Below, piece after piece: positions 14,667 to 37,739 of a stretch of DNA of 64,000 nt. How positions within the stretch are numbered: position 1 is the stretch's first letter; each line of letters starts with the position of its first letter. Source of the stretch: Planctomycetota bacterium (GTDB lineage Bacteria; Planctomycetota; UBA1135); contig JAAESM010000050.1 of NCBI GenBank assembly GCA_024229395.1, positions 58,043-122,042 on the forward strand, written 5' to 3'. The notes under the pieces are model-generated. The model did no database searches. It was given only the letters and a program-made list of their open reading frames with translations, and was not told the origin of the DNA. The position numbers and the translations under genes were made by a program.

Positions 14667-15878
14667 TTAAGAGGCAGTTTCGAAGCGATTTGGCCACGCG
14701 CTAACCTGCCGGGGCGGGCACCAGCCCTCACAAAGAGCAGTGCAAACGGATTGGGCGGTAAGTTGCGGAGTCTCGGAATCAGCTAGTTGCAGGCGCAGCA
14801 CGGTGGCGGTCTTGCCCACCGTCAGCTTGCCCCAATCTTGTTGCTGCAGGACTTCGGCTCCACGTGTGGTCAACGCATGCCACCAAGCTTGCGCTCCGGC
14901 GCTGGGCATTGCGTTAAAGGCCAAGGCAAGCTCGAACAAGGGATCCAACCGCGTATTCGACGCCCTGGAATCACAGCCCAATGCCGGCAGCGGCGTGCCT
15001 GATTCCACGAAAGCCGCAGCAGGGCGTTCGAAGTATTGATGCGTTCCAGGACAGAACACCACCCCCACTTTGGCCGCTGCAAGGCGCTGCAACTCCCCCG
15101 CATCCAAGTCGCCGCCATGCACGACCAAGGTGCCAGCGCGCAAGCCACCGACATGCTGCAACCAATCCACCGGCGAAGCCCACTGCTGTGACTTCAAGGC
15201 TCGCCCACGTTTCTGCAACAGCTCCGCCAGCGGCCCACTGCCATGCGCAAGTAGTTGGCGCTCCTCTTGATGTTCGCCAAGATGAATCGAGACCAAGCTG
15301 CCTTGAGCGGCTTCGAAGACCTTGCGGGCGACGTCGTCAGCGATCGAGAACGGTGCGTGCAATGACAACGCTTGTCCTTGGGCGAGTTGCTGCAGCAGCT
15401 GTGGATCAAAATCGGAGTCTGCTGGAGCGAAGACCTCTGGCATGGATAGGACTTGCGGTAACCCGGGCACCTGCTGTTGGCCGTCGGCACCAACTTCAGC
15501 GACATGGGTGGCGACCAAACCACAACCGTAACGCGCGAGTTCCGCCAGCGACAAGGCCGCACTGGAAGCGGCGTCAAGTCGTTGCGCAGTCATACGCCAG
15601 GACAGCAGCTGCTCCACCCAGCCGCTGAAACCCACGCCACGCCAATCGGCGCTCGGTGCATCAAAGCTCTCAAGGTGGGCATGCGCCATCACCGGCGCTG
15701 CAGTCCACAACTCGCCCGGAAACTCCTTCACCGGCAAATCCGCAGGCAACGCGGCAGCTGCAGTGACAGCCTGAATCTGCCCAGTGGGATCGACCACTAA
15801 AGCAGTGCGCTCCTGCAAGGATTCCGAATCCTGCAGGAGCGCGTCGGGCAGCAAAGCCCAGAGACGATCTTGGATCAA
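14667..15878 (-). CDS. metal-dependent amidohydrolase, MtaD/chlorohydrolase/aminofutalosine-deaminase-like
   Basis: Carries HAHLES (HxH), HLGEHQEE, VHGG and LGCDSRASN. The TTG start lies in a TTGA overlap with the stop of the giant lipoprotein gene. Confidence 0.65.
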   Translation of the reverse strand: MIQDRLWALLPDALLQDSESLQERTALVVDPTGQIQAVTAAAALPADLPVKEFPGELWTAAPVMAHAHLESFDAPSADWRGVGFSGWVEQLLSWRMTAQRLDAASSAALSLAELARYGCGLVATHVAEVGADGQQQVPGLPQVLSMPEVFAPADSDFDPQLLQQLAQGQALSLHAPFSIADDVARKVFEAAQGSLVSIHLGEHQEERQLLAHGSGPLAELLQKRGRALKSQQWASPVDWLQHVGGLRAGTLVVHGGDLDAGELQRLAAAKVGVVFCPGTHQYFERPAAAFVESGTPLPALGCDSRASNTRLDPLFELALAFNAMPSAGAQAWWHALTTRGAEVLQQQDWGKLTVGKTATVLRLQLADSETPQLTAQSVCTALCEGWCPPRQVSAWPNRFETAS

Positions 15879-18800
15879 TCGCCCGTGTAATCGAAAGTGA
15901 CTTCGGTCACGCGGAAGTAAGCGCCTGCGCCAGTACCGATCAGCGTCTCGATCTTGTCATGGTCGAAGACGACCAAGTAACGCAAGGCACGCACAATCGA
16001 GCCACTCAGCTCGCTAAGACCATCGGTGACACCGTTGAAGCCTGGAATGATCCATTCCGACTGGTTGATCAGCGTTGGGTTCGCCAAAGCCGATTGTCCT
16101 GCTTCCATCCAACTTTTCTGGAATCCGACCCAGATTGGGGTGGTGTCAGGATCGGTTGGCGAGGCGTTGCTGTAGCTACCGGTGTTGACGGTGGCGCCGT
16201 TAGGCGACCATTCGTACTCGACAGTCCAGCTGTCGAAGACCAACTCCTGCACGGTCGAAGCAGGCTCGTACCAACGACTGCGAACACCACTGGCGTTGCC
16301 GTTGAAGGTGGTGCCATCATCAGCGACGACGTCGCCACCACTGAAAGCCACGGCCATCTGACCGATGTTGGCTTGACCAGGAGAACCGATTGGGGTCAGT
16401 TCCACAGCACTGTCAGGTGCAATCATGCCTTGCAGCGCGGACAAGCTCTCGAGGCCGGTACCGGTCTCGACACGGACCAAACCACTGCCTCCATCGCCAC
16501 CATGGTTACCAGCGGCACCAAGTCCACCGGAACCACCAGCTACCGAGATTGAGTCCAGTCCAGCCTGCAATACCGAGCCGACCTGAATCAACAGGGAACC
16601 ACCGGAACCACCACCGCCACCTGCATCTCCAGGAGGGCCGTAGTCGATTGCGTTGGTATCAGAGAATGGAACCGACAGCATGAAGTTACTGTCGCCGCCA
16701 TCGCCACCTTCGGCGAGGATTGAACCTTCGATGGTCAAGCGCGAGCCGACGTGAATCTGTGCTGCACCACCACCGGCACCGCCACCTGCGCCAGGGCAGT
16801 TGCGGTAAGTACCGATCTCACCAGCCGAACCGGTGTAACGGTCGAAGATCGAACCGTGAATCGACATGCCTGCGCCGCCACCACCACTACCGCCGAGCAG
16901 CAAACCTGCTTCTGGGTCTGCGGTGTGGATGTTCAATGGCAGGCTGTAGTGACCGCCGTCGGCATCAGGAATCACGCCATCGGCTCCAGCATCCCACATG
17001 AAGTAGTTGCCGCCTGCGCCGTCGCCGTTGAACTCACGAATGTTGTCGCCACCATCGAGGTCGATGATCGGCTCATCCAGCGCTGCGCCAGACGGGTTGG
17101 TGCTGGTGGCATCGTAGTACTCGCCGACGTCGCCGTGAGTCCAGTAACCGCCGCCACCGCCACCGCGCGAACGGTGGATTGAGAAATCGCCGAATGCACT
17201 GGCGCTACCACCAGAGAAAGCCGTTGGGTGGGTCAAGACCGGAGCACCGTTGGTGAAGTTACCCAAAGGCATGTTGCCACTGTGCGGCGGCCAAGCCCAT
17301 GAACCCATTCCGGAACCGAGCTGGTAATCAGTCATCAGGTTGGCGCTGCCAGCAAGAGCAGAACCGGTTGCGGCTACACCGCCGACGCCGTCACCGTTGC
17401 CACCGTTGAACTCATCACCGGACTTGTTGCGCTTGAAGCGCGATGAATCCGGATCACCTGGCAAACCGAGGAAGCGTTGCTCCCACATCAGCTTCGAGGT
17501 GTTGAGGTAGGCATCGCCACCACCGCCGAAGACGAAACGGATGCTGTCGTAGTACCACGACTGACCACCCATACCGCCACCACCGGCGCTCAAATCGCCC
17601 GTAGCACCTGCAGTACCGAGTGCCTTGTCTTCAAGGCCCACGCCACCGGCCGCCCCCTTACCGAGATCCGACTCGTTGAAGGTTCCGAACCCTGTGCTGG
17701 TGCCGTTGTCCCACTCCTGGTGGGCAAAGAACTTGCCGTTCGGGTTGAACTGCGCACTTGCACCAGAGAAGTCAATCACGCCTTCGACGAAGGCCCGGCC
17801 GCGCACGACCACGCGTACGGCATTGGTGCCGGTTGCTTCCAGACGCGCAGCCTGATTAATGATCAGTTCCGAGAATGGGAACATGCCACCGGTCACGGTA
17901 ACGTTCTCGCCCAGCAACTCGGAAGCAATCACCATGCTGTCGGTGTCAAGCGTGGTCAAGCCATCTGGCAGGGTGTAAGAGCCCAACACGCCAGAGCCGC
18001 CACCTTTGTGCAAACCGGTGGTGACATCAAGGCCACTATCGAGCGTGCCTGGTGCGCCACTGGTGGCCCACAATCCAGCAGTACTGCCGTTGTCATCGAG
18101 CTTGCCGGAATCGGTGAAGGATTCGCTCAGGGTACCGACGACGGTAGGCAAGTCAGGGAGCAAGGCCGTCTTGATTCCTGGGTTGCACAGGGTGTTACCC
18201 GCCAGGTCAGAAATCTGCTGCGACAAGGAGATGCGCAACTGGCGCTCGCCGTTGTTGGAGCTAGGCCATGGCACATTAGGCGTGAAGGTCACGGTGGTGC
18301 GCAAGGCGTCGCGGTCTGCAACTGCAACGAAGGTCCCCGGAATATCAATCGAACCTGCAGTGGTATCGAAAGACTGAATGGTGATCAGCAAACTCTCACC
18401 GGTTTCTGGGTTCGCCATTGGCAAAGTCGACATGACATCGTCGAAGACCATTACGATCTCGAAGTCACGGCCGGTCGGTGCGGTTAGATCATCGGGAGTG
18501 ATTGAGGTCAGGCAAGGAGGTCCAGGCACAAGGTCAGTCACACCAGTGATGGTGATGTCGCCGGTGATGAAGGACTCGTTGGCGCGTCCGGATGCTGCAC
18601 GAACCACGTTAGGGCTGTCGACATCGAACAAGCGCACTTGATAGACCGCGCCATCCAGGAATCCGAACTGCACACCAGAGGAAGTCTCCACCAACGTTGG
18701 GCGGAAGATCACACGATTACCACTGACGATGAAGCTGCCGGTTGGGGATGCACCAGTAGCCAGATTGACGATGGAAATCGACGAAAAGTTGACCGAGTTC

Positions 18801-19006
18801 GGGTCGACTTTGTCGTTGAAGGTGAACGAGAGATCCTTGTTGGCTGGGTGCGAGTTGAGGGCGAACGAGGCACCGTTGCACCCTAAGGAGCACACGGACA
18901 CGCCGAAAGACTCAACGGCAGCGCCGTCGGTGGAACTGGAGCCGCAAGCGCCAAGCACGAGTAACATGCTGGCGACGGCAAGGGTTTTGCTTGTAGGGAA
19001 AAGCAT
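15875..19006 (-). CDS. giant lipoprotein, glycine-run subtype (hypothetical; SbsA-type Ig-like N-terminal modules)
   Basis: The ATG at 19006 gives MLFPTSKTLAVASMLLVLGAC (signal peptide plus lipobox). Ig-like module ..LSFTFNDKVDPNSVNFSSISIVN... Gly-run core in ORF aa 490-890. Paralog of 26266-29841. Confidence 0.8.
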   Translation of the reverse strand: MLFPTSKTLAVASMLLVLGACGSSSTDGAAVESFGVSVCSLGCNGASFALNSHPANKDLSFTFNDKVDPNSVNFSSISIVNLATGASPTGSFIVSGNRVIFRPTLVETSSGVQFGFLDGAVYQVRLFDVDSPNVVRAASGRANESFITGDITITGVTDLVPGPPCLTSITPDDLTAPTGRDFEIVMVFDDVMSTLPMANPETGESLLITIQSFDTTAGSIDIPGTFVAVADRDALRTTVTFTPNVPWPSSNNGERQLRISLSQQISDLAGNTLCNPGIKTALLPDLPTVVGTLSESFTDSGKLDDNGSTAGLWATSGAPGTLDSGLDVTTGLHKGGGSGVLGSYTLPDGLTTLDTDSMVIASELLGENVTVTGGMFPFSELIINQAARLEATGTNAVRVVVRGRAFVEGVIDFSGASAQFNPNGKFFAHQEWDNGTSTGFGTFNESDLGKGAAGGVGLEDKALGTAGATGDLSAGGGGMGGQSWYYDSIRFVFGGGGDAYLNTSKLMWEQRFLGLPGDPDSSRFKRNKSGDEFNGGNGDGVGGVAATGSALAGSANLMTDYQLGSGMGSWAWPPHSGNMPLGNFTNGAPVLTHPTAFSGGSASAFGDFSIHRSRGGGGGGYWTHGDVGEYYDATSTNPSGAALDEPIIDLDGGDNIREFNGDGAGGNYFMWDAGADGVIPDADGGHYSLPLNIHTADPEAGLLLGGSGGGGAGMSIHGSIFDRYTGSAGEIGTYRNCPGAGGGAGGGAAQIHVGSRLTIEGSILAEGGDGGDSNFMLSVPFSDTNAIDYGPPGDAGGGGGSGGSLLIQVGSVLQAGLDSISVAGGSGGLGAAGNHGGDGGSGLVRVETGTGLESLSALQGMIAPDSAVELTPIGSPGQANIGQMAVAFSGGDVVADDGTTFNGNASGVRSRWYEPASTVQELVFDSWTVEYEWSPNGATVNTGSYSNASPTDPDTTPIWVGFQKSWMEAGQSALANPTLINQSEWIIPGFNGVTDGLSELSGSIVRALRYLVVFDHDKIETLIGTGAGAYFRVTEVTFDYTGD

Positions 19007-19156
19007 CTTCACAATGACCTGAGCAGGACAAACCGATACCCCCCGTTGACAGTCGTCGACGAGGTTTCTCGGTGGGGCAAGTTTAGCAGAGTAAACACCA
19101 TGGGCACACAGACTTACGTACATCAACCGAGGCAGTTACCAAAGCCACACATTTCT

Positions 19157-21453: not shown

Positions 21454-21461
21454 GCTCCTGG
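21434..21461 (-). promoter_or_regulatory. perfect hairpin enclosing the SD-like AGGAG and the ATG of the pilin-like gene
   Basis: The minus-strand RNA 5'-CCAGGAGCAUGA-AGGC-UCAUGCUCCUGG-3' forms a 12-bp perfect stem with a 4-nt loop. The ATG at 21453-21451 lies in the 5' arm. Confidence 0.35.
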
Positions 21462-21488
21462 AGCTATTGGATCTGGGAATCAATGTGA

Positions 21489-23565: not shown

Positions 23566-24252
23566 TTATGGAAGGATGAGGATTTCGACGCGGCGGTTGC
23601 CGGCCTTACCGTCCTTGGTGGCGTTGTCGCCAGTTGGGTTGAACTCGCCGTGACCGGAGACCCGGACCTGCTCAGCAGCCAAGCCGCCTTGGTCCATCAG
23701 GTAGTTGGCGACCGACATGGCGCGCTGCACCGAGAGCTCCAAGTTGTTCTTCCAACCGGACTTCTTGGGCTGATCGTTGTCGGTATGGCCTTCTACCCAC
23801 AGGGTATTGCCACCGTAGCTGTCCTTGAGAATCTGAGCCACTTGATTCATGGTCTCCTTACCTTTCTTATTCAGGTCAGCCTTGCCGGAAGCGAAGGTCA
23901 ACGAGGAAGGCAGGTCAAGGACAATCATGCCGCCGCGCGAGGTTGCATCGACACCTGGGGGCAGGTTACGACGCAGCTCATCGAGCTCGGCGTTCTGCTG
24001 GGCGAAAGCAGCATCGCGTGCTGCGCCAGCGGTCTCAAGTTGGGCAACGCGGTCGCGCTCGAAGCGTAGCTGCTCCTCGAGGGCGTCACCCTCTGCACGG
24101 ATGCGTGCTAGCTGTGCGCGAGTCGAATCGTTCTCAGCCATCAAGGCTGCGTTTTGCTGGTCTGCGTCCTCGAGCATCTGCTTTTGCATGCTGCTCTGGC
24201 AGGATGGAGCGATCAGCGCGAGAATGGCGATGAAAAGCGTGGATTTAATCAT
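23566..24252 (-). CDS. OmpA/MotB-domain protein with N-terminal coiled coil
   Basis: Signal peptide, then heptad-like QNAALMAENDSTRAQLARIRAEGDALEEQLRFERDRVAQLE. The C-terminal peptidoglycan-binding domain carries GHTDN, LELSVQRAMSVANYL and NRRVEILI. Confidence 0.85.
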   Translation of the reverse strand: MIKSTLFIAILALIAPSCQSSMQKQMLEDADQQNAALMAENDSTRAQLARIRAEGDALEEQLRFERDRVAQLETAGAARDAAFAQQNAELDELRRNLPPGVDATSRGGMIVLDLPSSLTFASGKADLNKKGKETMNQVAQILKDSYGGNTLWVEGHTDNDQPKKSGWKNNLELSVQRAMSVANYLMDQGGLAAEQVRVSGHGEFNPTGDNATKDGKAGNRRVEILILP

Positions 24253-24286: not shown

Positions 24287-25315
24287 TCAACTCGACAACA
24301 GGCGAGGCCAGGTGTCTAAGAAGAAGTTGTGAACGGCTAAGGGATCCAGCATGACGAGCATGGTTCCCAGGATTAGGGGTGGACCAAAGGGGATGGTTCG
24401 TCCAGCCTGCCAGCCGATGTAGGTGAAAGAATGGACGTAGGTATGGTTCTTGCCTTGCGTGCGACGCCGGTGGCGAACCACCAGAATCATGCGCAACACA
24501 TTCACCACACCTAACAATGCGCCTGCGAAGACGCCGACCGCCAAAGTCCACAGGGAACCTTCGAGGCCGAGGAAGGCTCCAACTGCGGCGATGTACTTGA
24601 CATCTCCAAAGCCCAGAGCTTCCTGCTTTAAAAGATAAGAAAAAAGGCGACCAATTCCAAACAGGAACCCGAAAGAAATCACGGCTCCAAGGATTCCTGA
24701 AATCAAAGCCAGGCTGTTTGGCGAGCGGTCGGCGCTAAGTCCAAGCAAGTCAAGGCCTAGCGGCAATCCGTCTAATCCAGGCCAGAAATGAAAAGCTGGA
24801 ACGGTGGCCGCTGCGAGCAGGCCAAATGGCACTCCACCGATGGTAATTCCATCGGGCAAAATGAAAAAACGGAAGTCGACGGCCGCCGCGATCCATAATC
24901 CGGTGAACGCAACGAAGCCGAAAAGCAGAGCCAAAGCCCCCCCGCCTTGCGCCGGATCTGCCATCCAAGTCTGGCCGGCGAGCCAAAACAAGGCCGCCAA
25001 ACCGATCTCGTGGACCATGTATCCAGGACCATAACTGGCCTTACAGGCACGGCAGCGGCCCATCAAAATCAGGTAGCCGATGATCGGCAGATTGTCATGC
25101 CAGCGGATAGTGGCATCGCATTTAGGGCAATGCGAGCGTGCAGGCTTGACCACCGACATGCCATCGCGCGGAATGCGATAGATCGCCGCCGACGCGAAGG
25201 AGCCCGCCATAGCCCCCGCCACGGCCAGAAAAACGCCGTAGAGAAGTGGAACTTGTTGCAGGTCTTGCAGCCAGGACATCCAAGAGATTGTGCGCTCTCG
25301 GCAGGTAGATTCCAA
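24287..25315 (-). CDS. pilD: A24-family prepilin peptidase / N-methyltransferase
   Basis: CPKC...CRAC zinc knuckle, multiple TM helices and Asp motifs (AAAVDFRFFILPD, LGFGDVKYIAAVG). An ATG at 25279 is an alternative start. Confidence 0.88.
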   Translation of the reverse strand: MESTCRERTISWMSWLQDLQQVPLLYGVFLAVAGAMAGSFASAAIYRIPRDGMSVVKPARSHCPKCDATIRWHDNLPIIGYLILMGRCRACKASYGPGYMVHEIGLAALFWLAGQTWMADPAQGGGALALLFGFVAFTGLWIAAAVDFRFFILPDGITIGGVPFGLLAAATVPAFHFWPGLDGLPLGLDLLGLSADRSPNSLALISGILGAVISFGFLFGIGRLFSYLLKQEALGFGDVKYIAAVGAFLGLEGSLWTLAVGVFAGALLGVVNVLRMILVVRHRRRTQGKNHTYVHSFTYIGWQAGRTIPFGPPLILGTMLVMLDPLAVHNFFLDTWPRLLSS

Positions 25316-25367: not shown

Positions 25368-26195
25368 CTATTGAGCGACACGATGGACCCGCAGGACGCG
25401 ACTGCTTTCCTGCAGCGGCCAGCCTCCCAGTCCCTCCATTTCGGCAGGCAAGGTCAAGACCCCCCAGCCACTCCAACTACCAACCATCACCTCCAAGCGA
25501 GCGCCGTCCAGACCGTTACTCAACAGCCGCAGCGCGCACGGCACCTCCTCAGCCTTGCCCTGGCTACGCAGCGTTGCGACGCCATTCAAAGAGCGTGGGT
25601 CCAGGCCGCCGCGGAACTTCAGGATCATTGGGGTATTGGCAGCAAAGGCCAGGCCCCCGCCGGGCTGCACTCCTTCCAGGGCCAATACCGAAAATTCAGC
25701 ACCACTGCCCAGCAAAGCCCCTGGATCCTTAGCCGCAGCAGTGCGGAAAGGCAGCGCCAACTCACCAGGAAGGACTCCGCCCGCTGTGGAGGTGATGGCG
25801 CCAAGCCGTGGCAAGCCATGCAGCCGAATCTCGTAGCGTCGGTCTGGATGCAAGCTTCCATCTTCCAGGCTGGGGCTCAACGGCAACTGCGGCTTGATCC
25901 GTAGCCAGCTGCCGACGGCGTTGACCTTCACACCATGCACAACGTTGCCGAACTCATCGACGAGGCTGACGGAGCTCTGACGCAGCGGTTGGTGCAGGGG
26001 CTCACTGAACTCGATCGCCAGCTCCTGATCCAGTGGCAAGGCAGCACCATCACTACCGCTCCACGACACCACCGTAAAAGGCACGACGGACTCACTCTCC
26101 TGACAAGCGCAGAGGAGGCTTATGAGGGCCATGGCCCAAAGCCGCCCACCGAGTGAGATGGCAAAGCGATGTACACCAGAGCCTGTTTGAGTCAT
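25368..26195 (-). CDS. Ig-like (SbsA-type) domain lipoprotein, hypothetical
   Basis: The ORF-track start at 26255 lies inside the terminator hairpin, so I chose the ATG at 26195 (or 26132). Signal peptide ends ..LISLLCAC. Ig-like module LAIEFSEPLHQPLRQSSVSLVDEFGN...WLRIKP. Confidence 0.6.
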   Translation of the reverse strand: MTQTGSGVHRFAISLGGRLWAMALISLLCACQESESVVPFTVVSWSGSDGAALPLDQELAIEFSEPLHQPLRQSSVSLVDEFGNVVHGVKVNAVGSWLRIKPQLPLSPSLEDGSLHPDRRYEIRLHGLPRLGAITSTAGGVLPGELALPFRTAAAKDPGALLGSGAEFSVLALEGVQPGGGLAFAANTPMILKFRGGLDPRSLNGVATLRSQGKAEEVPCALRLLSNGLDGARLEVMVGSWSGWGVLTLPAEMEGLGGWPLQESSRVLRVHRVAQ

Positions 26196-26211
26196 AGCTA
26201 CAGCAGCATAC

Positions 26212-26245
26212 AAAAAAACCCCTGTGGCTCGGGGAGCCACAGGGG
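26212..26245 (-). terminator. intrinsic terminator after the giant-lipoprotein operon
   Basis: Perfect 12-bp stem CCCCTGTGGCTC/GAGCCACAGGGG with a 3-nt loop. It starts 20 nt after the stop at 26266 and is followed on the minus strand by a U7 run (26212-26218). Confidence 0.85.
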
Positions 26246-26265
26246 TTGAAAGCATTCGCGCTGGA

Positions 26266-29200
26266 TTACCAGGCGAACGGAAGCTTCAAGTACTCGATGC
26301 CTGGACGCTCCTTGTCGACGGTCGGACCGGAGTCCAATGCATCGATGTCAAAGGTCAAGCGATAACGAATGAAGCGCGAGCCATCAAGCGTTGCCAAAGT
26401 CGTGGTACCACCGTCGCCAGTCCATTCCGACTTGGCGCTGAGGTCAGGATCGTTGGTGCCGGTGATGGCATCGGTGCCCTGGAACTGAATCCGAACACTT
26501 GCCGAAACTGGCAGGCGATCCTTAGTGTCAGTGGTGTTGACACGGAAGAACTTGGACTTCACGACCCAGCTTGCACTTGCCAATAAAGCCATTGGACCAT
26601 CACTGACGCGTGTGGTCAGTACCAAGGTCTCAGGGCTTGCGGTGTAAGTTGCTTCCATGATCTCGAAGGTACTGGCGTTGCCTAAGGCAGCGTTAGGCAG
26701 CACATCGAAACCGACCAGCAGGTTCGGGTTGCGCAGGAACTCAGCTGCGAAGGAGTTGGATGGATTCGCGATCGTGACCGAGTAGTTACTGAAGGTTGCG
26801 GAACCTGCGCCAGCATCACTGCCGATGGTGTCACCTGCAACTACCTTGTTGGCCGAAGAAATCACCATGCCGGTGTCCGAATCGATGCCATCGAAGTGCA
26901 GCAAGGCGTCCAAGTAGGCAGGGTATGTTCCAGCACCACTGTTGGTACGCAGACCAGCCAAACCGGTATCGATCCACTGTGACTGCAGTTGTGACTCAGG
27001 CGAGTAGAACGGCACCAAAGTGAAGGCCTGTGGCATGGTGTACAGACCCAAGATCTCATCTTGGCGATCGGACACCGGTGGGTTGTCCAAGTCTTCGACG
27101 GAGATGTACTGCTTGAAGGCTGCATCCACCGTCGGGTGGTAAGTGATATCGGTGAGTGGGTTCGGTACGTGTACCTGAATCACACCCGAAGCACCTGCGC
27201 CGCCGCGACCAGTACTGTAAGGACCGTTGCCATCAAGATCCGTGTCGTTGGTAGCACCACCATTATTAAAGGTAGCCGAAGCCGTGCTGACAGCCCAACC
27301 ACGACGACCACCAATGGCTTGCACCACGTGGTTGCCGGCCAGGTTATCGAAGAAGGTCGCTGGGACACCTGGGTCACCAGCCGTTCCGACATCGATTGCT
27401 GCGACATTCAGCCCCGTGGTGGTATGGAGAATCATATGGCCACCAGAGCCACCACCGGAACCGGACACTTGCGTGGTAGTTCCCGAAACGGTGCCTTCGT
27501 AGGAAGCTTCACCACCATGACCTGCGCCACCATTGACCCTCAGCGTAGTGCTTGGGCCAAGAGTAATCGCGCCAAGCGCATGGATCTGAACCTGACCACC
27601 GCCACCGCCTCCAGGAGCTCCACGGTAGTAAGCCGGTGTGGCTGGACCGTGGTTCGGGAAGTTTGGGTCCGGCCAGTGATCAATCAATGGCAAAGCAATA
27701 CCCATGCCGGTGCCATCATCGATGTAGCGCAATAGCTGCTGCATATCGCCACTTGCTCCGCCACCGGAGCCAGCATAGGGAGCCATCAGTTCACCGGTAA
27801 CCAAGACTGGGTCGGTGACGCCACCATCCCAGAAGAAACGGTTGCCATAGAAGTCGTTGCTCAGGTCGCCATCAGAGAAGACCGAAGTACCAGCGAGGCC
27901 ACCATCTGGACCATTGGTCAAGCTACCAATGTCATAGCTCATGTTGGCGGTCGTTCGGGCTGGATCGAAGAAATCGTTGTCGGTAGCGTCGCCATCTTCA
28001 AGCAAGTCCTCGTAACCGTGTGTGCCGTGTGCACCTGGGCCTGCTGCTGCACCACCGGAACCACGAGCACTACCCCGTAGGCCTGCTTCTGCCCCAGTGA
28101 AGATTGCATCTTCATCGAGAGTGGTGCCGCCATCAAATGCGGTGTGGCGATCGGCGCGCAAATCTGGACCGGCGTCGTCGAAATTCAGCGGGTTCTCCAG
28201 TGCGCTCCATTGATCCCAGAAAACGGAATCAGTACGTCCAAGGCTGAATGCGCCGCCACCGCCACCGCCAGCAACAATGTACTGAGCAGTCACTCGGCCA
28301 GCTCCACCACCAGTTGCGGCGAACTCGGTGTACTGTTGGAAGCCACCTTCACCACCTTGACCGCCACCGAAGGTTGCGCCGAATGGACCGTTGCCGGTCT
28401 CACCGCGAACAGTGTAGCTATCAATGGTTTGCGAAGAAGTACCACCATCTCCACCACCACAAACGCCTTCAGCGCCTGGGCCAGGCAGTTCCGGGTGGTA
28501 AGCACCACCATCAGGTGCAGCAGCATTGAAGCCACTTGCATCCAACGTTCCGAGCAGGTTGGCTTCGCCAGCGACATAGATGATCAATGGGTTGTCACCT
28601 GCAGCGCGCAAAGTGGCACCTGACTCGATCGTGAAGTCATTGACCTCAAGAACACCATCGGTGATGGTGAAGGTACGACCATTACCATCGGAGAAGTCAT
28701 GGCTGCCGTTATCCGTGGTCAAGGTCAACAGACCCTGGGTGGCGGTCACGACGAGGTTTTCGTCGGTGGCCACTGCCGAACCTGGGAACTCGAAGTCCGC
28801 CGACAACAAGTTCGGAGAGACGCTTGCGGTTGGTTGTGGCAGCGAGGCATCGAGGTCGAGGCCGTTAGGACCTTGGAACTCATCGCGGAACTCATCGACG
28901 GTGACATCGGTCTCCGTGAACGCTGGGCCATCAGCGTATAGCTGTGCCAAGGTCGGCATGCTGACGGGCAAGGAAGTGACCGCGGTCGTGTTGGTCGCAC
29001 CGCCGATATCCTGGAAGTCCGAGGAAGCTACGACGCGAATCGAACGACTTGGCAACAACACGCCGCTTACACGGAAGTGAAGGACTGCGCCGTCGCCACA
29101 GTTTTGCACCACCAACCAATCACCTGCAACGATGTTGCCGGAGGTTGGGAACAAACCCACTGCGTTGGAGTACTGAACGTGAAGACGATCCAGCGCAAGG

Positions 29201-29841
29201 TTGTCCGGAGACGGGTTGATCGACTGGTTAAAGGTCACCACGATCTCGGTCATGTCCTGCGACAGCAAACCGAGAGAGTTCGGAATCTCGACGGTGTCGA
29301 AAGCTGGTGGACCGATGATGGTATCTGCGAAAAGAGCCTCACCGATTTCAGGCGTCTTGAAGTCGCGGGTCAGGCCAGTGGCCAATTGATGGCCCTGGGT
29401 ATCACGCAAAATCGACGAGCCTTGGTTACCCAAAGTAGGCAGAACCAACTCGTAGTTGTTGCCGCCAGGTACTAGGCCACCGTTGGTGTTGCCAGCGTTG
29501 GTCGGGCAGGAAGGCGTGAAAACAATCATGCGATTAGCGCGTCCACTGGTATCCGCCGTCAATTCGAAAGTGCCGGTCACTGGCTGGCCAAGGCCGCCTG
29601 CATCCGTAGGACGAATGATGATGGAAGCGAAGCCGATCGAAGCCGGGTTGATCGCACTGTTGAACACGATCTGAATCGGACGGTTCAGAGCCCAGATGTC
29701 GCCATCACTGATGTTGGTGGTCAGGGCTTCGAAGGTGCCGACTGTCGGCGAGGATGACTTACATCCCCCCGCGAAGACGGCACTAAGTACGCCGCCCGCG
29801 ATCAGGAGGTTACGCAGGATGGGAAAACGAGATGGGAGCAT
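26266..29841 (-). CDS. giant lipoprotein, glycine-run subtype (hypothetical)
   Basis: The ATG at 29841 overlaps the upstream stop (TGATG). A TTG at 29844 is also possible. Signal peptide with lipobox VFAGGC. Ig-like module IQIVFNSAINPASIGFASIIIRP. Gly-run core at aa 400-895. Paralog of 15875-19006. Confidence 0.85.
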   Translation of the reverse strand: MLPSRFPILRNLLIAGGVLSAVFAGGCKSSSPTVGTFEALTTNISDGDIWALNRPIQIVFNSAINPASIGFASIIIRPTDAGGLGQPVTGTFELTADTSGRANRMIVFTPSCPTNAGNTNGGLVPGGNNYELVLPTLGNQGSSILRDTQGHQLATGLTRDFKTPEIGEALFADTIIGPPAFDTVEIPNSLGLLSQDMTEIVVTFNQSINPSPDNLALDRLHVQYSNAVGLFPTSGNIVAGDWLVVQNCGDGAVLHFRVSGVLLPSRSIRVVASSDFQDIGGATNTTAVTSLPVSMPTLAQLYADGPAFTETDVTVDEFRDEFQGPNGLDLDASLPQPTASVSPNLLSADFEFPGSAVATDENLVVTATQGLLTLTTDNGSHDFSDGNGRTFTITDGVLEVNDFTIESGATLRAAGDNPLIIYVAGEANLLGTLDASGFNAAAPDGGAYHPELPGPGAEGVCGGGDGGTSSQTIDSYTVRGETGNGPFGATFGGGQGGEGGFQQYTEFAATGGGAGRVTAQYIVAGGGGGGAFSLGRTDSVFWDQWSALENPLNFDDAGPDLRADRHTAFDGGTTLDEDAIFTGAEAGLRGSARGSGGAAAGPGAHGTHGYEDLLEDGDATDNDFFDPARTTANMSYDIGSLTNGPDGGLAGTSVFSDGDLSNDFYGNRFFWDGGVTDPVLVTGELMAPYAGSGGGASGDMQQLLRYIDDGTGMGIALPLIDHWPDPNFPNHGPATPAYYRGAPGGGGGGQVQIHALGAITLGPSTTLRVNGGAGHGGEASYEGTVSGTTTQVSGSGGGSGGHMILHTTTGLNVAAIDVGTAGDPGVPATFFDNLAGNHVVQAIGGRRGWAVSTASATFNNGGATNDTDLDGNGPYSTGRGGAGASGVIQVHVPNPLTDITYHPTVDAAFKQYISVEDLDNPPVSDRQDEILGLYTMPQAFTLVPFYSPESQLQSQWIDTGLAGLRTNSGAGTYPAYLDALLHFDGIDSDTGMVISSANKVVAGDTIGSDAGAGSATFSNYSVTIANPSNSFAAEFLRNPNLLVGFDVLPNAALGNASTFEIMEATYTASPETLVLTTRVSDGPMALLASASWVVKSKFFRVNTTDTKDRLPVSASVRIQFQGTDAITGTNDPDLSAKSEWTGDGGTTTLATLDGSRFIRYRLTFDIDALDSGPTVDKERPGIEYLKLPFAW

Positions 29842-32800
29842 CAATTGGTAGTGTAAGCGAAGCCAAAGGCGTCGAGTTCTGCTTCAAGGTCTTGGTCGAT
29901 GTTGGCGACGAAGGTGAAGCGTAGCTGGAAGAAGCGTTTGCCGGAGGCAACCAAGTCTGCTGCATCGTCGGACCAATCGGTTGGTGGGTCGACGTTGCCA
30001 CAGGCAGTATTGTCGTAATCGCCGTAGGCGTCAAAGCCGGACGATGCATCGTCCAAGGGCGATGCGAGGTCGGTACAGCCAGTTTCCTGGACCAGAGTCG
30101 TAGCACGGTAATCGACCAGTACCGAGGTTCCTGGGTTGGCTTGAGTGGAGGTTGGCTCCAAAGTCACCGAAGACAGCGACTGGATATCACCACCGAAGTC
30201 GAACCAGTGGGTGTAGATCTTGCTGACCTTGGTCACGAAATCGACCTGGCCCCAGTAGAGCTCAGGACCGAAACCCTTGGTCACGGATCCTTGGGTTGGA
30301 CCAGAAGTCACGTAGCCGCCATAAGGGTGCGTACCCTTCGGGGGCAAGTCAGGGCTAACTAGTTGCCAAGTAGGAGCAGTGTCCTGACCACCGGCGCTGA
30401 ACACGCGGAAGGCCGGGATGTTGGACGAACCAACCATGATCTGCACCTGGAAACCGTTGAAGCCCCATTCACCACCACGTGGGTAGCAACGGTAACGCAT
30501 CAACAGTGGCAGGGCGATACTTGGGTAGTAACCCTTGTTGTAGGTCGGAGGAGCTGCGGAGACCACGCGTGGTGGCACGCCCCATCCATCCAGTGGGTTA
30601 CCGCCTTCCAAGCTACCGCCGTTGGGTTTCGGGAAGGAAGTATCGCGCCACGTGTAAGTCGTCGAGAAGTCTGGCCATGGGTACATGAACACACCACCAG
30701 GAGTCTGGAACTTATTGATGGTCGAGATCGAATAACTGCTATCGAAGCAGATCACCTCATCCAAGTCCGCGTAGGTGTTTGGGTTCTGACCGTAGCCGTA
30801 GATGTTCTCGTCGAAGCCGTTCGAAGTCAGACGACGCAGACCCGAGTTCTTGTGTCCTGGGTAACCGGTCATCGGGTTGATGTAGTCATCCGGGAAACGA
30901 CGCGAGTGTGCGAGCGCAACGGAGTAACGTGCGAAGGTGTCATCAAACAAGACGCCTTCGAATGGTGACCAGTTGAGGCCTTCGACATCAAGGTTGAACT
31001 CGGAGTTCGAGGTCAGACCGAAGCCAAGGTGGTGATAACCCCAGACCGTCATCATGACCGAACCGGAAGGTACCAATGGCGTCATGATGCCAGCGGTGAA
31101 CTTCAGACGGTTACCGATGTACAGGTTGGTCTGGTCAGCTTGGCGCGAGAAACGCGTCAGCGAACGACCGCGGAGTACACCATCGCCAAGTTGAGGACCT
31201 AGCTGACCACCGTATTCAGGAGCCTGATCGTTATCTTCATCAGCACCGTTACCGCGCAAGGCGAAGTAAGCGTCTGCTGGGACACCAGCTCCGGTATCGT
31301 CCAAGGTCAACTGTCCAGCCGCTTGGCTGGAGTGACCTGCAACGAAGCCAGTGAAGTTCATCGGGTTACCCGACAAGTCGAGGATACCGGTGGAACCATC
31401 ACGAAGAGCCAACGAAATCTGCTGCAATGCACCAAGACCGAATGGGTCCGTGACACCTGCAACTGGAGCCATGGTGAAGCTTTGCGCATCACCGGATACC
31501 GAAACCGGACCGAACATAATCGCACCGGAACCTGCACCTGGGCTGAAGCCTGGCAAACGGTCGATGTAATCAGCGACGGCCTCACCGCCGAGCTGGTCCC
31601 ACTCATCATCCACGACTTCTACGTTGGCGTCGTCGGTGCTGGCGAGCACCATCGAATCCAGGGAACGTACGGTGCCGACGTCAATCGGCTCACTGAAACG
31701 TACGGAGAAGGTTGCGAAAGGATCGACATCCGTAGCCGGGAAGGAAGCCGGCGATGGAGTGATGGTCACGAAGCAGTACTGCACAGGAGCATCAGCCACC
31801 GTGTACTTGGTGGTCAACAGACCACTGATGCCGGAGCCACCTGCGGATAGTGATCCGGACAACAAGGTACCGGTCACGACATAAGCGCTGTCATCGACTG
31901 CACTGACGACGCTGGTGACCTGGATCAGCGCATCGCCAACCTCGTGGACGTCACCGACCTTCGGCGTGATCGGACGACAACCGACCGCGTCAATCGCGTA
32001 GGTCAAGGTGCGCAAGTAACCAGCTTCGGTGACGGCAGAGATGGTGATCTCTTGACTCACGATCAGGTCAGGGCGCAGATTATCGATCAGGAAGCCGTTG
32101 AAGACGTCGAAGTTGTTTCCAGTACGGAAAGCGCGGACGGAAACAGGATCAAAGCCGGCGAACTCATGGGGCTCGAGAATCGAGGAGCCGTTGGAATCAC
32201 GCACGACATCGAAGGTCTGCGTGCCAGCCTTGTTGGTCAGCAACATGTTCTGGTTCAAGAACGGGTTGCGCGCGGTTGGGATCCGAACCTTGACGTTCGG
32301 GTTGACCTGACCAACCGATTCAGGGAAACCAACACCATTCTCAGGAATGCTGTAGGTCTCCGAGTCCTTACGCGAGATGGTCGGATCAAGAATCACCAAA
32401 CCTCTTGGCGAACCGTCTTGGCCAATGCCTTCCTTGACGATGTATCGCAACTCAAGACTCTGGAAAGTTTCGTTGCTGGTACCGACCAAAACCTGGATCG
32501 TCTGGCGGTCTACCGTAGCTGGATCGAGGAACTCGCTGAAGACCAACTGGATGCAGCCGTTACGCGCCACCTTGGTGAACGGTGCTGGAGCATCGAAGCT
32601 CTTGGACTGCAGTGATGCGAGTCCGTTGGTCGCTGCCGTATAGGCGGCGTTGAAGGCGGCGGTGCCATCCTCCAGTTCAATGGTCAGGGTTTCACGCTGG
32701 GTGATTGGGTTGAGCCCGAGGTTGTAGATCACACCATCGCTCTGCACGCTCTCGCGAATCAGGACGTCGGACTCTACCAACAGCCCGGTGCTGTCAAAGA

Positions 32801-32987
32801 CATCAACCAAACGCCCCCACTGCATGTCTTCCAAGACTAGCGTGGACTTGCCACTGCCGGCTCCAGTACTGCTACCAGCAGAACCAAGGTCATTCTTGGC
32901 GGCACCACACCCCATCAGCAAGATTGCTGGAAGGGCAAGGCTGAGGAGTGAAGTCTTCTTCAGGAGGTTGTTCACGGTGAAATCCAT
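29841..32987 (-). CDS. giant lipoprotein, non-glycine subtype (hypothetical)
   Basis: 1048 aa. Signal peptide with lipobox ILLMGC. Full-length paralog of 32989-36108. The start ATG lies 1 nt after the upstream TAA. Confidence 0.85.
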   Translation of the reverse strand: MDFTVNNLLKKTSLLSLALPAILLMGCGAAKNDLGSAGSSTGAGSGKSTLVLEDMQWGRLVDVFDSTGLLVESDVLIRESVQSDGVIYNLGLNPITQRETLTIELEDGTAAFNAAYTAATNGLASLQSKSFDAPAPFTKVARNGCIQLVFSEFLDPATVDRQTIQVLVGTSNETFQSLELRYIVKEGIGQDGSPRGLVILDPTISRKDSETYSIPENGVGFPESVGQVNPNVKVRIPTARNPFLNQNMLLTNKAGTQTFDVVRDSNGSSILEPHEFAGFDPVSVRAFRTGNNFDVFNGFLIDNLRPDLIVSQEITISAVTEAGYLRTLTYAIDAVGCRPITPKVGDVHEVGDALIQVTSVVSAVDDSAYVVTGTLLSGSLSAGGSGISGLLTTKYTVADAPVQYCFVTITPSPASFPATDVDPFATFSVRFSEPIDVGTVRSLDSMVLASTDDANVEVVDDEWDQLGGEAVADYIDRLPGFSPGAGSGAIMFGPVSVSGDAQSFTMAPVAGVTDPFGLGALQQISLALRDGSTGILDLSGNPMNFTGFVAGHSSQAAGQLTLDDTGAGVPADAYFALRGNGADEDNDQAPEYGGQLGPQLGDGVLRGRSLTRFSRQADQTNLYIGNRLKFTAGIMTPLVPSGSVMMTVWGYHHLGFGLTSNSEFNLDVEGLNWSPFEGVLFDDTFARYSVALAHSRRFPDDYINPMTGYPGHKNSGLRRLTSNGFDENIYGYGQNPNTYADLDEVICFDSSYSISTINKFQTPGGVFMYPWPDFSTTYTWRDTSFPKPNGGSLEGGNPLDGWGVPPRVVSAAPPTYNKGYYPSIALPLLMRYRCYPRGGEWGFNGFQVQIMVGSSNIPAFRVFSAGGQDTAPTWQLVSPDLPPKGTHPYGGYVTSGPTQGSVTKGFGPELYWGQVDFVTKVSKIYTHWFDFGGDIQSLSSVTLEPTSTQANPGTSVLVDYRATTLVQETGCTDLASPLDDASSGFDAYGDYDNTACGNVDPPTDWSDDAADLVASGKRFFQLRFTFVANIDQDLEAELDAFGFAYTTN

Positions 32988-32988
32988 T

Positions 32989-35900
32989 TTAGTTTTTCCA
33001 AACGATGCCTAAACCGTCGAGCGCTGGGCGCAAGCCCAGGTCCGCGTTGGAGTTGAAGGTCACTCGTACCTGGAAGTACTTGTAGCCAAGTCCTTCAAGG
33101 TCAGCGAAGTCGGTGGTCCAAACACTTGGCGTACTGACGTTACCGGTAAATCCATCCCAGTCGCCGTAGTTATCCAGTGGCGTATCTGCGGTGGTCAACG
33201 GCGATGGGCTGCCCTCTGGGTCGTTGTTCTCGTGGCTGACTGCTGCAGCGCCACGGAACTCCACGACCATCGACGTACCAGTCGGCTGTGCAGCGGCTGG
33301 TGGTTCCACAACGACGTCGACCACAGCATCAGGGCTGAGGTTGGCGCCAAGGTCGAACCAGTGGCTGTACATACGCGAGACGTCGAGGGCGAAGTCGGCT
33401 TGCACCCAGTAGATAGCTTGGTCACCGATGGATGGCGTTGGGCCACCACCTGGCAAGAAACCACCGGTAGGGCGCGTACCACCCTTGGCAGGGTTGTCTG
33501 GCTGAACCTGCTCCCATTGGCTACTGCTGTTCTGACCACCTACTGAGTAGATGCGGCAGATTGGCGAGTACAGCGGGTTGCGTCCCTGCGGCACGATGTC
33601 CGTGACGATGAAGGAGTTCAAACCCAACGTGTTGCTTTGCGGGAAGGTGCGGTAGCGATACAGCAAAGGCAAGGCAACCGAAGGTGCGAAGCCGGGGTCC
33701 CAAGCGAAAATCTCACCGGAGTCCGTCAAGTATTGAGGGCCTGGCGTAGTTGCCTGAGCGCCACCGAGATAAATCTGAGGAATGGTGGTGTCTCGCCAGA
33801 CGTAGTTGCTGGTGAACTCGGGCCATGGCAGGTAGTTCACACCATTGGTCACGAAGGTGTTGATCGACTGGGTGAAGTAGCTGCTGCGGAACACTTCCAC
33901 CTCATCTACGCCCGTGTCGACGCCCTCTTGATAACCGAGGATGTTGGCATCGAAGCTTTCGGTGACCAGACCCGATTGTGCATTCACAGGGTTGCCTTGA
34001 ATGTCGAGGACTTCGTCCGGCTGGTACTCCGAGTGCGCGAAGGACAAGGAGATGTCGGCGAAGGTTTCGTCATAGACCACACCGTTGTTCGGTGCCCAGT
34101 TCCAGCCCACGACCGTGACGTTGTATTCCGTCGGATCGGTGTAACCGAAGCCGAAGTCGTGTGCGCGGTGCATGCCCATCACTACGGCACCAGCCGGAGT
34201 CAGTGGCTCGTTGACCGGAGCACCCAGTGGGCGGTTTGAGATCGACTCACGCGAAGTATCCGCAGTACGCGAGAAACGCTCAGGCACGCGACCAGTGACT
34301 TCACCGGCATTGATGATGTTGACTTGGCCAGCCCATTCGGCAAGGCCGTCGCCGTTCTCATCCAAAGATGCGGCGGAGAGCACGAAGCTCTTGTAGCCAA
34401 TATCAATCGAAGAGACGGTAATCGATTCCGCTTGACCGTCGTTACCTGCGACGAAACTCGACAAGTCGATGGGGTTACCGGAAAGGTCCTTGATGCCATC
34501 GGCGCCATCACGCAGAGCAACCACGAATGCGTGGTCGGTTCCTGGGTCACGCCAGCCAGCGGAAGGTGCCAAAGTGAACTGACGGTTGCCGTCGGTTGCC
34601 TCAATGGAACCGAACAGCAGGCGACCACCAAACTCAGAAGCTGGGTCGGCGCCGGCTGCGACTGCACGGAAATCAAAGCCACGCTGACGGTCGATGAAAT
34701 CACCGACGCTTTCCGCGTTCTCGATCTGGCGGAACCAAGCTGCTTCGATCTCGAAGGGCTCGTTGATCGCGCCCGTTGCGGTGTCGTCTGGGCTGGCAAC
34801 CACGAAGGTCTTCATGGAGCGCATCGAGTTCGGGTCGATTGGCTCATCGAAACGCACCGTAACGGTGGCGTTCGGATCGATGTTGGTGGTCGGGAAATCG
34901 CCAGCCACGACAGGTGGCGGTTGAATGTCCAAGTAACAGACTTGAACCGACGCATCGACTGGGGTGTAACGCGTGGTGTAACGCGCGGACAAGTTTGCTG
35001 CGCCCGTGATGATGCTGGTATCTGCAGCTTCGATCGAGGTACGTACGCGGTAAGCAGCTGGGTTGCTGGAGTTCAAGACATCGGTCACCAACAACAAGCC
35101 GGTGCCGACCTCGAAGATGTCACCCACCTTGGGCAACATAGGCTGACAACGCACGGCATCGACGCTGTAGACCACATCGGCGGTTGCGCTGGTCGCGGCA
35201 GTCACGCTTGAGATGGTTGCCTGCTGCACACCGATCAGGTGTGGGCGGGTGGCATCGCGCAGGAAACCGCGATAGGCATCGACCTCGTTACCGGAGCGTG
35301 CGGCGCGCACCAAGACAGGCTTGCCACTGATGAACTCCTCGAAAGGCTCGGTTGCAGGGTTCTGCACAGTTGGTGTGCGACGGCCATCGAGGCTCTTCAG
35401 CACCAACGGCTGGCCGAACAATGGATCCGGCACGGTTGGGATGCGGAAAGCCATGTTCGCCGAGAAGGTGTCGACCGAACCAGGAAAACCAACCGCGTTT
35501 TGCGGGATGGCCTCTTGAGCAGCCTCTTGTGCCGAGACTGTTGGATCGAAGATCACATATCCCTTACCCGTCACGGAATCGTTATCAACCACATAGCGCC
35601 CTGCGAACGACAGCAGAGGTGGGTCGCCAACGTAGACCTGAACCGTGGTGAAGTCCACGGTGTTGGGATCGACTTGTTGCGAGAACTGCAGACGGACCGC
35701 GCCGTTACGAGCGATCATGCTCATGGGCGGTGCAGTTGTTGTCTTCTTAGCCGTGACATGCTGCAAGTTGTCTTCGGCCGACGCCAGCAAGGTGTCGAAT
35801 GCCGAGGTACCGAATGCCTGCAAGATGGTCAGCGTTTCACGCTGCGTTGCAGGGTTGGTGGACAACTCGTAGTTGATGCCGTCGGAATCGAGCAGGTGAT

Positions 35901-36108: not shown

Positions 36109-36332
36109 CCTGAGTGGGTTCTGTCGTTCGAATTCAATGGGACGGTCTGTGACAAAGCGCGTGAGCCATGACACAGACCTTCTATCCTAAAGGTGCGCAT
36201 GCTTGTTCGCTTGGGTCATATGAGCAAATCCCGTACCAGCCCTAAGAAGTAGCCTGGAAGGCCCTTATGTGGACAAGAGCGCCCATGAAGTGCGGAAACG
36301 CACAGGCTCCGTATGGAGTCCCATTTTCGGCA

Positions 36333-37649: not shown

Positions 37650-37739
37650 CACAGGGAATCCGTTGGGCGTTTCAGCAAGGGGGTGAGTACCACCACGCGA
37701 ACAACAGGATACCCCCACAACCTGCCGACGGGAATGCCC

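Follow-up and report, generated by a model that had tools for sequence, protein, structure and literature searches.

A conserved glycine-rich core in two planctomycetal lipoproteins and its possible beta-helix and polyglycine-II architecture

What a bacterial envelope protein may build from runs of glycine is the question raised by a 64,000-nucleotide stretch of Planctomycetota DNA (assembly GCA_024229395.1, contig JAAESM010000050.1, positions 58,043–122,042 of the forward strand; further the window), where the products of two genes, designated here as A and B, carry such runs in their central regions. Stretches rich in glycine are commonly written off as disordered linkers. A preliminary description of the window explained them as turns of a right-handed beta-helix or solenoid attached to a lipoprotein anchor. 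The present analysis indicates that this central region (the core) is a conserved domain without a match among curated families or solved structures and that, according to the structural models, the A core is one compactly folded domain rather than a linker. With moderate confidence it is read as a beta-helix spine combined with Gly segments of polyglycine-II (PGII) type, an assembly that would serve as the rigid head of a protein of the envelope. Both open reading frames (ORFs) are present on the minus strand, and all peptides quoted in the preliminary description were found in their translations. Residues of A are numbered from the TTG codon at 29844, and numbering from the ATG is lower by one.

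Runs of at least five Gly, Ser or Ala residues occur seven times in A and eight times in B. Under a stricter definition (at least six such residues, at least four of them Gly) six runs were counted in each core against shuffle means of 0.58 for A and 0.97 for B, and a count of six was reached by none of 5000 composition-preserving shuffles of the A core and by one of 5000 of the B core, so the repeated runs claimed for both cores lie far above chance. The Gly content rises from 14% in A overall to 23% in its residues 436–900 and is 25% in the B core. In the alignment of 62 A orthologs (31–86% identity to A) 51 core columns are invariant, Gly occupying 45 of them (88%), and the positions and lengths of the Gly runs are fixed across the aligned relatives. 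Invariant Gly columns are also found in the B core across 40 orthologs, and the order of motifs is kept in a 38-member superfamily alignment, where two modules are conserved, one comprising the entry segment plus the first Gly motifs, the other the block of Gly runs with strands. Few parts of the superfamily are conserved as well as the entry segment, and most of the distant relatives match profile positions ~4–180. Invariant or nearly invariant residues other than Gly in A are E499, D700, S796, H803, R847-R848, D871, N873, H567, E586, and R590, and the non-Gly features that persist superfamily-wide are GEL, GGD, NDF, and the Q/H in IQLHVP.

AlphaFold2 models were built with the 62-ortholog A alignment. 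The full-length model of A reached a predicted local distance difference test score (pLDDT) of 86.6 and a predicted template modelling score (pTM) of 0.75, and the model of the core (residues 340–960, 621 residues) reached a pLDDT of 89 and a pTM of 0.90. The 10-residue blocks that contain Gly runs have a pLDDT of 92–97, and the low-confidence stretches are poorly conserved loops. Disordered linkers, named in the preliminary description as the outcome that would speak against its proposal, are thus not what structure prediction gave.

Strands are distributed unevenly along the modelled core. Residues 364–435 are 57% strand, with a pLDDT of 96–98 over the entry segment, and the starts of the ten entry-segment strands lie 5–10 residues apart, which equals three strands per 20–27 residues, as in a triangular beta-helix. 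One further three-strand rung appears in the model at residues 751–769 (QVQIHA-LG-AIT-LGPST-TLR; the unit extends to 772 and measures 22 residues). Residues 436–900 are 15% strand and 11% helix, 75% being neither, and all seven Gly runs of A fall in the latter class. A predicted strand follows directly after four of the seven runs (691, 745, 794, and 881), so that the claim of a hydrophobic strand immediately after every run holds for most runs but not for all. Successive units of run plus strand are spaced by 49–96 residues in A and by 13–90 in B, and the periodicity proposed as a check of the solenoid was not recovered, as the profile self-comparison revealed no significant internal repeat.

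The conserved parts of the core follow one another in a fixed order (Table 1). The first Gly-motif block is modelled as neither helix nor strand with a pLDDT of 90–97, and its invariant residues are G463-465, G467-468, G494-495, G497-498, E499, G527, and G530. The mid-core (534–683) is 80% non-helix and non-strand with a pLDDT mostly of 72–95. The block of residues 684–895 includes four units, modelled with a pLDDT of 92–98, which are GELMAPYAGSGGGASGD-MQQL; GAPGGGGGG-QVQIHA-LG-AIT-LGPST-TLR-VNGGAGHGGE; SGSGGGSGG-HMILHT; and GRGGAGASG-VIQVH. Invariant in this block are G692, G694-696, G699, D700, G745-750, G772-773, G775, and G778, as well as G795, S796, G797, G799, G801-802, H803, G881-882, G884, and G887. 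The helices modelled at 896–935 probably cap the core. As a separate observation, residues ~704–716 of A (about 27697–27735) correspond to the family consensus RxDxDGDxxxDP, a DxDxDG-like motif and possible Ca2+-binding loop, the copy in the window being degenerate (RYIDDGTGMG).

In the favoured reading A and B belong to a family of exported proteins. Both contain a predicted lipoprotein signal followed by Big_5-type Ig-like domains, a core of ~500–570 residues, and, at the C-terminus, a beta-rich region. In the model the core opens with a short stack, three to four beta-helix-like rungs high, of three short strands per rung and continues with units in which an invariant Gly segment of 6–9 residues (all-Gly or GGxGGxGG-like) runs directly into a beta-strand; these strands probably add extra layers to the beta-helix or to a sheet. 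The Gly segments themselves may pack backbone to backbone on this spine as helices of the PGII or polyproline-II (PPII) type, and Gly would be almost exclusive at the invariant positions because only Gly fits PPII packing. Confidently modelled segments of 6–9 residues which belong to neither helix nor strand and accept only Gly are the hallmark of PGII/PPII bundles. In the Gly-rich segments a spacing of three between non-Gly residues is enriched (0.21–0.26 versus 0.14 expected) and a spacing of two is depleted, which fits the three residues of a PPII turn; the period-3 spacing is also present in Obg. With regard to function, the core would be the rigid head, the Ig-like domains the stalk, and the lipid the anchor of a protein that probably plays a structural or adhesive role in the envelope or at the surface and is not an enzyme.

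The searches for known relatives gave few results. Ig-like domains were all that scans of Pfam, NCBIfam, and PHROGs detected, the queries being A and B, the two cores, and, beyond these, 39 orthologs of B and 37 diverse relatives. Foldseek comparison of the core model with the PDB returned no solved fold (best E=4.5), with the caveat that this method may treat PPII-bundle folds poorly, and comparison with viral models (BFVD) returned only collagen-like or other glycine-rich matches of low TM (0.2–0.28), which are treated as echoes of composition and local geometry, not as fold matches. On the sequence level A alone matched nothing in the PDB, and the A-family profile gave only a weak match to MTG2 (E=0.45). 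The superfamily profile matched Obg of B. subtilis (1LNZ, E=1.3e-4), human MTG2 (1.8e-3), and Obg of T. thermophilus (1UDX, 0.056), which makes Obg the only family of solved structure reached by sequence. The match covers the glycine-rich N-domain, the alignment pairs strand-GGxGGxG-linker-GGxGGxGG-strand, and none of 500 block-shuffled decoys attained the real score of B. subtilis Obg. Like the period-3 spacing, this match and the viral-model echoes are taken as pointing to PPII-type segments, none of them amounting to proof.

Several points weigh against the PGII reading. The Foldseek search missed the PPII-bundle entries expected in the PDB (7N00, 6F45, 1LNZ, and the snow-flea antifreeze protein 3BOG). 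E. coli ObgE was not distinguished from decoys, 39 of 500 reaching its real score, the hhalign scores against Obg were inside the null range, and the Pfam model PF01018 (GTP1_OBG) matched neither A, B, the 39 B orthologs, nor the 37 relatives, having found the N-domain of B. subtilis Obg as control with E=1.5e-65; the kinship with Obg is borderline and, as judged by sequence, inconclusive. The period-3 signal is modest and was counted on mutually related sequences. The function proposed for the core is read from its architecture only, and no conserved functional neighbourhood supports it. Finally, E499, D700, H803, R847-R848, D871, and N873 could mark a catalytic or metal-binding site.

The plain right-handed beta-solenoid, where all Gly runs serve as rung turns and regular stacking produces an extended fibre or a passenger-like rod, is the explanation closest to the preliminary description, and the rung-like strands at 364–435 and 751–772, the strands directly after four runs, and the folded, strand-containing nature of the domain agree with it. 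However, 15% strand in 436–900 with three quarters of residues in neither class, units of A 49–96 residues apart instead of ~20–27 per rung, and the missing internal repeat do not suit regular stacking, and the pTM of 0.90 over 621 residues describes one confidently packed unit that may have a compact or a rod-like shape. Beta-helix families (pectate-lyase-like, autotransporter passenger, PATR), proposed for profile searches, likewise gave nothing, as no beta-helix, autotransporter, or RTX Pfam model matched A, B, the 39 B orthologs, or the 37 diverse relatives. Among the Foldseek hits of the core the best beta-helix match was the autotransporter passenger 8e7f (E=7.1, TM 0.05), and a phage pectate lyase (E=8) was also among the hits, neither being significant. 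A solenoid with poly-Gly turns throughout is therefore fairly unlikely, though its rung-like parts are retained in the favoured reading. Among carbohydrate-active enzymes beta-helix folds occur widely, and Planctomycetota are known as polysaccharide degraders. As a further alternative, the core could be an extracellular polysaccharide lyase or hydrolase, or a peptidase, whose acidic, His, and Arg residues form an active site scaffolded by the Gly runs. Several non-Gly residues are indeed invariant or nearly so, some of them (GEL, GGD, and NDF) superfamily-wide, but the invariant core positions are predominantly Gly and most conserved polar residues directly flank Gly segments, no catalytic family of Pfam or NCBIfam was matched, and no conserved transporter, sulfatase, or glycosidase neighbourhood accompanies the gene, the two distant homologs examined being located among housekeeping genes. 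An enzyme is considered unlikely.

Descent from a known glycine-rich family, either the Obg fold or the glycine-rich domain (GRD) of ALK/LTK, is suggested by the three Obg-family PDB chains and the decoy result for B. subtilis Obg described above and, for ALK, by a likeness of motifs noticed by eye, e.g., IVAGGGGGGAFSLGRTD and IIAAGGGGRAYGAKTD. The ALK relationship was rejected by every test applied: PF12810 (ALK/LTK GRD) found its own control (ALK GRD, E=4.9e-15) but nothing in A, B, and the cores at E<=10, nor in the 37 diverse relatives or the 39 orthologs of B; by hhalign the A core scored 22.3 and the B core 22.4, within the block-shuffle ranges of 14–26 and 19.5–25.4; and ALK scored -22.8 bits against the superfamily hidden Markov model (HMM). 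On the Obg side PF01018, hhalign, and E. coli ObgE were negative as described, the core is three to four times the size of the Obg fold, and it is exported without an attached GTPase; for neither family was a PDB Foldseek match obtained. A divergent member of these families is thus quite improbable, and clear homology to a characterised glycine-rich family, the other outcome named in advance as unfavourable to the solenoid, was not found. Disordered low-complexity linkers between folded domains are extremely unlikely. Their case is compositional, with 23–25% Gly and all-Gly runs of the kind that sequence-based intuition often labels as disordered, and it is opposed by the high pLDDT of precisely the Gly-run blocks, by the pTM of the core, and by the persistence of the 45 invariant Gly columns to ~31–40% identity with run positions fixed and lengths not variable.

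The favoured combination of a beta-helix spine with PGII helices can be compared with several described proteins. Natural PPII bundles include snow-flea and springtail antifreeze proteins, the Obg N-domain, acetophenone carboxylase, S16 gp38, and ALK/LTK (bioRxiv 10.1101/2023.11.25.568672; PMC13243192; PMC11364801), and their helices are 4–11 residues long, all-Gly runs being among them (PMC13243192). In phage S16 gp38 ten PPII helices are combined with beta-solenoid layers formed by the linking segments (bioRxiv 10.1101/2023.11.25.568672). This protein (6F45) resembles the core in the interleaving of beta-solenoid layers with PPII segments, which in the core would be 6–9 residues long, and in being an extracellular, surface-exposed head, as the core may also be. 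It differs in that no PHROGs match and no PDB Foldseek match links it to the core, and gp38 is a small phage tip domain, whereas the core comprises 370–570 residues, is cellular and usually lipid-anchored, and has a longer beta-helix-like entry. In the crystal structure of Obg the Gly segments form six PPII helices (bioRxiv 10.1101/2023.11.25.568672). The Obg fold (PF01018; 1LNZ) shares with the core the pattern strand, GGxGGxG, linker, GGxGGxGG, strand and the GGx period of three, and its strand-PPII-PPII-strand hairpins are cited as a comparable arrangement; unlike the core, it is cytoplasmic, about 155 residues long, fused to a GTPase, and ribosome-binding. In the ALK/LTK GRD fourteen PPII helices, all-Gly runs included, form a lattice against a beta-sandwich (PMC11364801; PMC13243192). 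It is extracellular, as the core is expected to be, and its all-Gly runs of 6–8 residues also pass at once into strands (PF12810; 7N00, 7NX1), in contrast to the negative homology tests (PF12810, hhalign, HMM, and Foldseek).

The right-handed parallel beta-helix corresponds to the core in having three short strands per 20–27 residues with Gly/Asn-rich turns (in the entry segment and one later unit) and, for A, in the helical segment after the last strand. It differs in that the core would have about four to eight rung-like layers in ~540 residues instead of ~24, that three quarters of the core lie outside strands, and that no Pfam or Foldseek match was obtained. Autotransporter passengers differ from A and B by their C-terminal barrel, the latter having an N-terminal lipid anchor instead. 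The GGxGG motifs of PE_PGRS proteins are predicted to form PPII bundles (PMC13243192). These proteins are, like the core, bacterial, exported, and Gly-rich, but they possess a long tandem GGA/GGN array behind a PE domain, while the core has few invariant Gly segments between unique conserved sequence. As candidates for family membership both PE_PGRS and the RTX beta-roll were rejected, the former because a PE domain is absent and the 7–8 runs are isolated and position-specific rather than an array, the latter (tandem GGxGxDxUx, HemolysinCabind) because of no Pfam match, no tandem periodicity, and segments that are not nonapeptide arrays.

The distribution of the core was determined with a profile restricted to the core (14 sequences), the targets being representatives of clusters at 50% identity. 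At least 479 cluster representatives matched at E<=1e-3, 298 of them at E<=1e-10, and most matching proteins are of ~1050–1250 residues with the core in the same position. Three complete proteins of ~402 residues from Logan assemblies (P0245, P0254, and P0260) are composed of a predicted cleavable type I signal peptide and a compact core, lacking the Ig-like and C-terminal domains, and they indicate that the core can stand as a domain of its own, about 370 residues long. All 54 genome loci encoding the core are labelled Planctomycetota except those of one metagenome-assembled genome (MAG), so that the family has so far been seen almost only in this phylum, and several genomes carry two or three copies. 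The exception ('Myxococcota bacterium 3300053785_31', JBLINB01; loci L012 and L039) has two copies, for which misbinning, mislabelling, or lateral transfer is possible. A homolog (QDU67020.1) is present in cultured Engelhardtia mirabilis Pla133, which belongs to the shape-shifting Saltatorellus clade (bioRxiv 10.1101/817700). A homolog search with the superfamily alignment re-found the B family only, because the selection of candidates tracked the first sequence.

On this basis an extended reading is put forward tentatively: the core may be an undescribed fold type, in which a short beta-helix spine and its layers are interleaved with ~8–9 PGII helices, largely specific to Planctomycetota, modular (on Ig-like stalks or standing alone), and present in several copies per genome. 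In the same tentative reading it would also be a new cellular class of PPII bundle, natural domains of this sort being described in only about seven kinds, and might make up a major part of the envelope in Saltatorellus-type lineages. If the combination of beta-helix and PGII segments is right, a large bacterial family of hundreds of clusters joins the natural PPII-bundle domains, of which very few are listed so far, and a recurrent multi-copy class of envelope proteins is recognized in a poorly understood branch of Planctomycetota with cultured representatives such as Engelhardtia mirabilis. No other part of this large domain, which lies outside curated families, is as conserved or as confidently modelled as the Gly segments, and even if the proposed geometry is wrong, a well-delimited new domain remains. 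PPII-bundle domains are of interest for protein design, antifreeze-protein, and receptor-biology fields, and the natural minimal version of ~400 residues is suitable for expression and structural work.

The paralogy of A and B, as claimed in the preliminary description, was established at the sequence level as real but distant. BLASTP aligned them with 23% identity (E=6e-8) over ~585 N-terminal alignment columns (A 7–545, B 3–510) including the entry segment, and comparison of the profiles of 62 A-type and 40 B-type orthologs gave 99.9% probability over the first ~430 columns and, under a more global setting, 98.5% (E=3e-15) over 379 columns that start at the entry segment and take in the Gly-run block. 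The shared entry segment ahead of the runs was also correctly recognized: that of A aligns to FSELIINQAARLEATGTNAVRVVVRGRAFVEGVIDFSG of B both by BLASTP and by profile-profile comparison (hhalign), and the B entry segment was matched by the A-core HMM with E=2.5e-8. The Gly-run/strand block alone aligns to B residues 733–822 with 91% probability (E=1e-6), pairing Y-R-G-A-GGGGGG-QVQIHA ... SGSGGGSGG-H-ILH of A with TYRNCPGAGGGAGGGAAQIHV ... AGGGGGSGGSLLIQ of B. The core profile found none of the other ORFs of the window above background (next best E=0.86).

Table 1. Positions of genes A and B, of the parts of their products, and of other reading frames in the window
Feature	Position	Strand	Residues	Description
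Gene A	26266..29841	minus	1191 aa	Predicted lipoprotein; ORF; 100% identical to NCBI MAG Planctomycetes protein P0001
A signal peptide and lipobox	29761..29841	minus		..LSAVFAGG-C28-KSS; predicted from sequence
A N-terminal Ig-like domains	28840..29733	minus	~38-335	Big_5-type beta-sandwich domains
A entry segment	28531..28755	minus	364-438	Ten short predicted strands in beta-helix-like rung pattern; includes LEVNDFTIESGATLRAAGDNPLIIYVAGEANLLGTLDASG
A first Gly-motif block	28246..28476	minus	457-533	GVCGGGDGGTSS, GGGQGGEGG, AGGGGGGA
A mid-core	27796..28245	minus	534-683	Conserved motifs other than Gly runs: DAGPDLRxDRHT, GAExGLRGS, GPDGG, NDFxGxRxFWDG
A Gly-run-then-strand block	27160..27795	minus	684-895	Four runs, each followed by a predicted strand
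A helical segment after last strand	27040..27159	minus	896-935	Predicted helices 896-899, 907-914, 925-932
A C-terminal beta-rich region	26269..27039	minus	936-1192	Strand-rich, pLDDT ~90; ends ..YLKLPFAW
Gene B	15875..19006	minus	1043 aa	Predicted lipoprotein; ORF; distant paralog of A with identical domain order
B entry segment	17762..17890	minus	373-415	GGMFPFSELIINQAARLEATGTNAVRVVVRGRAFVEGVIDFSG; aligned to A 396-438 (BLASTP, hhalign)
B Gly-rich core	16457..17659	minus	450-850	Limits from the preliminary description
B Gly-run-then-strand block	16457-16894	minus	705-850	GAGGGAGGGAA-QIHVGS.., AGGGGGSGGS-LLIQVGS.., GGDGGSG-LVRVE
185-aa ORF	20926-21483	minus	185 aa	Type IV pilin-like N-terminus ..APGFVLGELLAFVVLL (G|FxxxE); no Pfam match
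Prepilin peptidase	24287-25315			A24_N_bact + Peptidase_A24; near the 185-aa ORF
OmpA-family lipoprotein	23566-24252			Coiled-coil N-terminal half; near the 185-aa ORF

The order of parts in A is a signal peptide with lipobox, Ig-like domains, the Gly-rich core, and the C-terminal beta-rich region. The ORF tool started A at the TTG (1192 residues), and P0001 uses the ATG at 29841; 65 further homologs of A were found, nearly all full-length and a few partial. The mechanical ORF of B (15875–19126) starts at a TTG (19126), 40 codons further upstream, and the ATG at 19006 was taken as the start because the predicted lipoprotein signal MLFPTSKTLAVASMLLVLGAC begins there and most orthologs have 1035–1075 residues; the B homologs number 46, and every named one belongs to Planctomycetota. 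As proposed before, both proteins carry a predicted signal peptide ending in a lipobox with a nearly invariant Cys: Cys28 of A is kept in at least 90% of the 62 orthologs, and the Cys of the B lipobox (..LLVLGA-C21-GSS) is at least 90% conserved among 40 B orthologs. By the criterion of a signal peptide and a lipobox Cys, A and B are bacterial lipoproteins, their lipidation being predicted, and in the full-length AlphaFold2 model of A a helix at 9–23 is followed by a low-confidence tether.

The Ig-like domains of B matched Pfam Big_5 (PF13205) with E=3.4e-7 and 31.4 bits, above the gathering cutoff of 23.6 bits, as did all 40 members of the B family, and A (E=3.7e-4, 21.6 bits) was just under this cutoff. 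In Foldseek the Ig-like domains of A matched those of L,D-transpeptidases and the S-layer protein SbsC with E down to 2e-9, and these N-terminal domains dominated the search with the full-length A model, making it uninformative on the core. At the other end, the C-terminal region of A aligns weakly with the B C-terminus (70% probability, profile-profile). A-type proteins and the E. mirabilis homolog terminate in ..L(K/R)LPF(A/R)(W/F) with a nearly invariant last aromatic residue (26269–26300 in the window; also in P0140), and B ends differently, in ..FDYTGD. The A-type ending resembles the C-terminal signature of outer-membrane proteins, the modelled C-terminal region being unlike a transmembrane barrel.

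Upstream of A two further genes, C (29841–32987) and D (32989–36174), encode on the minus strand tandem paralogous lipoproteins of ~1050 residues, which are 37% identical over full length, show a weak Big_5 match, and form a family apart from A and B. The core-profile search detected no Gly core in C and D, and BLASTP found them unrelated to A and B except for a marginal B–D match (E=0.01, 60 aa). The genes D, C, A, and one for a 295-aa lipoprotein (E295, 25368–26255) are packed tightly on the minus strand and overlap or stand apart by 1 to ~10 nt, the stop codon of C and the ATG of A overlapping as TGATG, which suggests translational coupling; the prepilin peptidase and then the OmpA-like lipoprotein are located beyond E295. 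The order D-C-A-E295-prepilin peptidase-OmpA is kept at 50–59% identity but not at 42% identity or in E. mirabilis, where the homolog stands alone among housekeeping genes without enzyme-like context. According to this limitation to close relatives the order is read as general synteny and not as a functional module, and an operon-based function for A was rejected. Elsewhere in the window a 461-aa ORF on the minus strand (36333–37718) combines OTCace_N and OTCace, the catalytic part of aspartate carbamoyltransferase (ATCase), with a C-terminal PyrI_C match (E=3.9e-6), PyrI_C being the zinc domain of the regulatory chain, and may represent a fused catalytic-regulatory ATCase.

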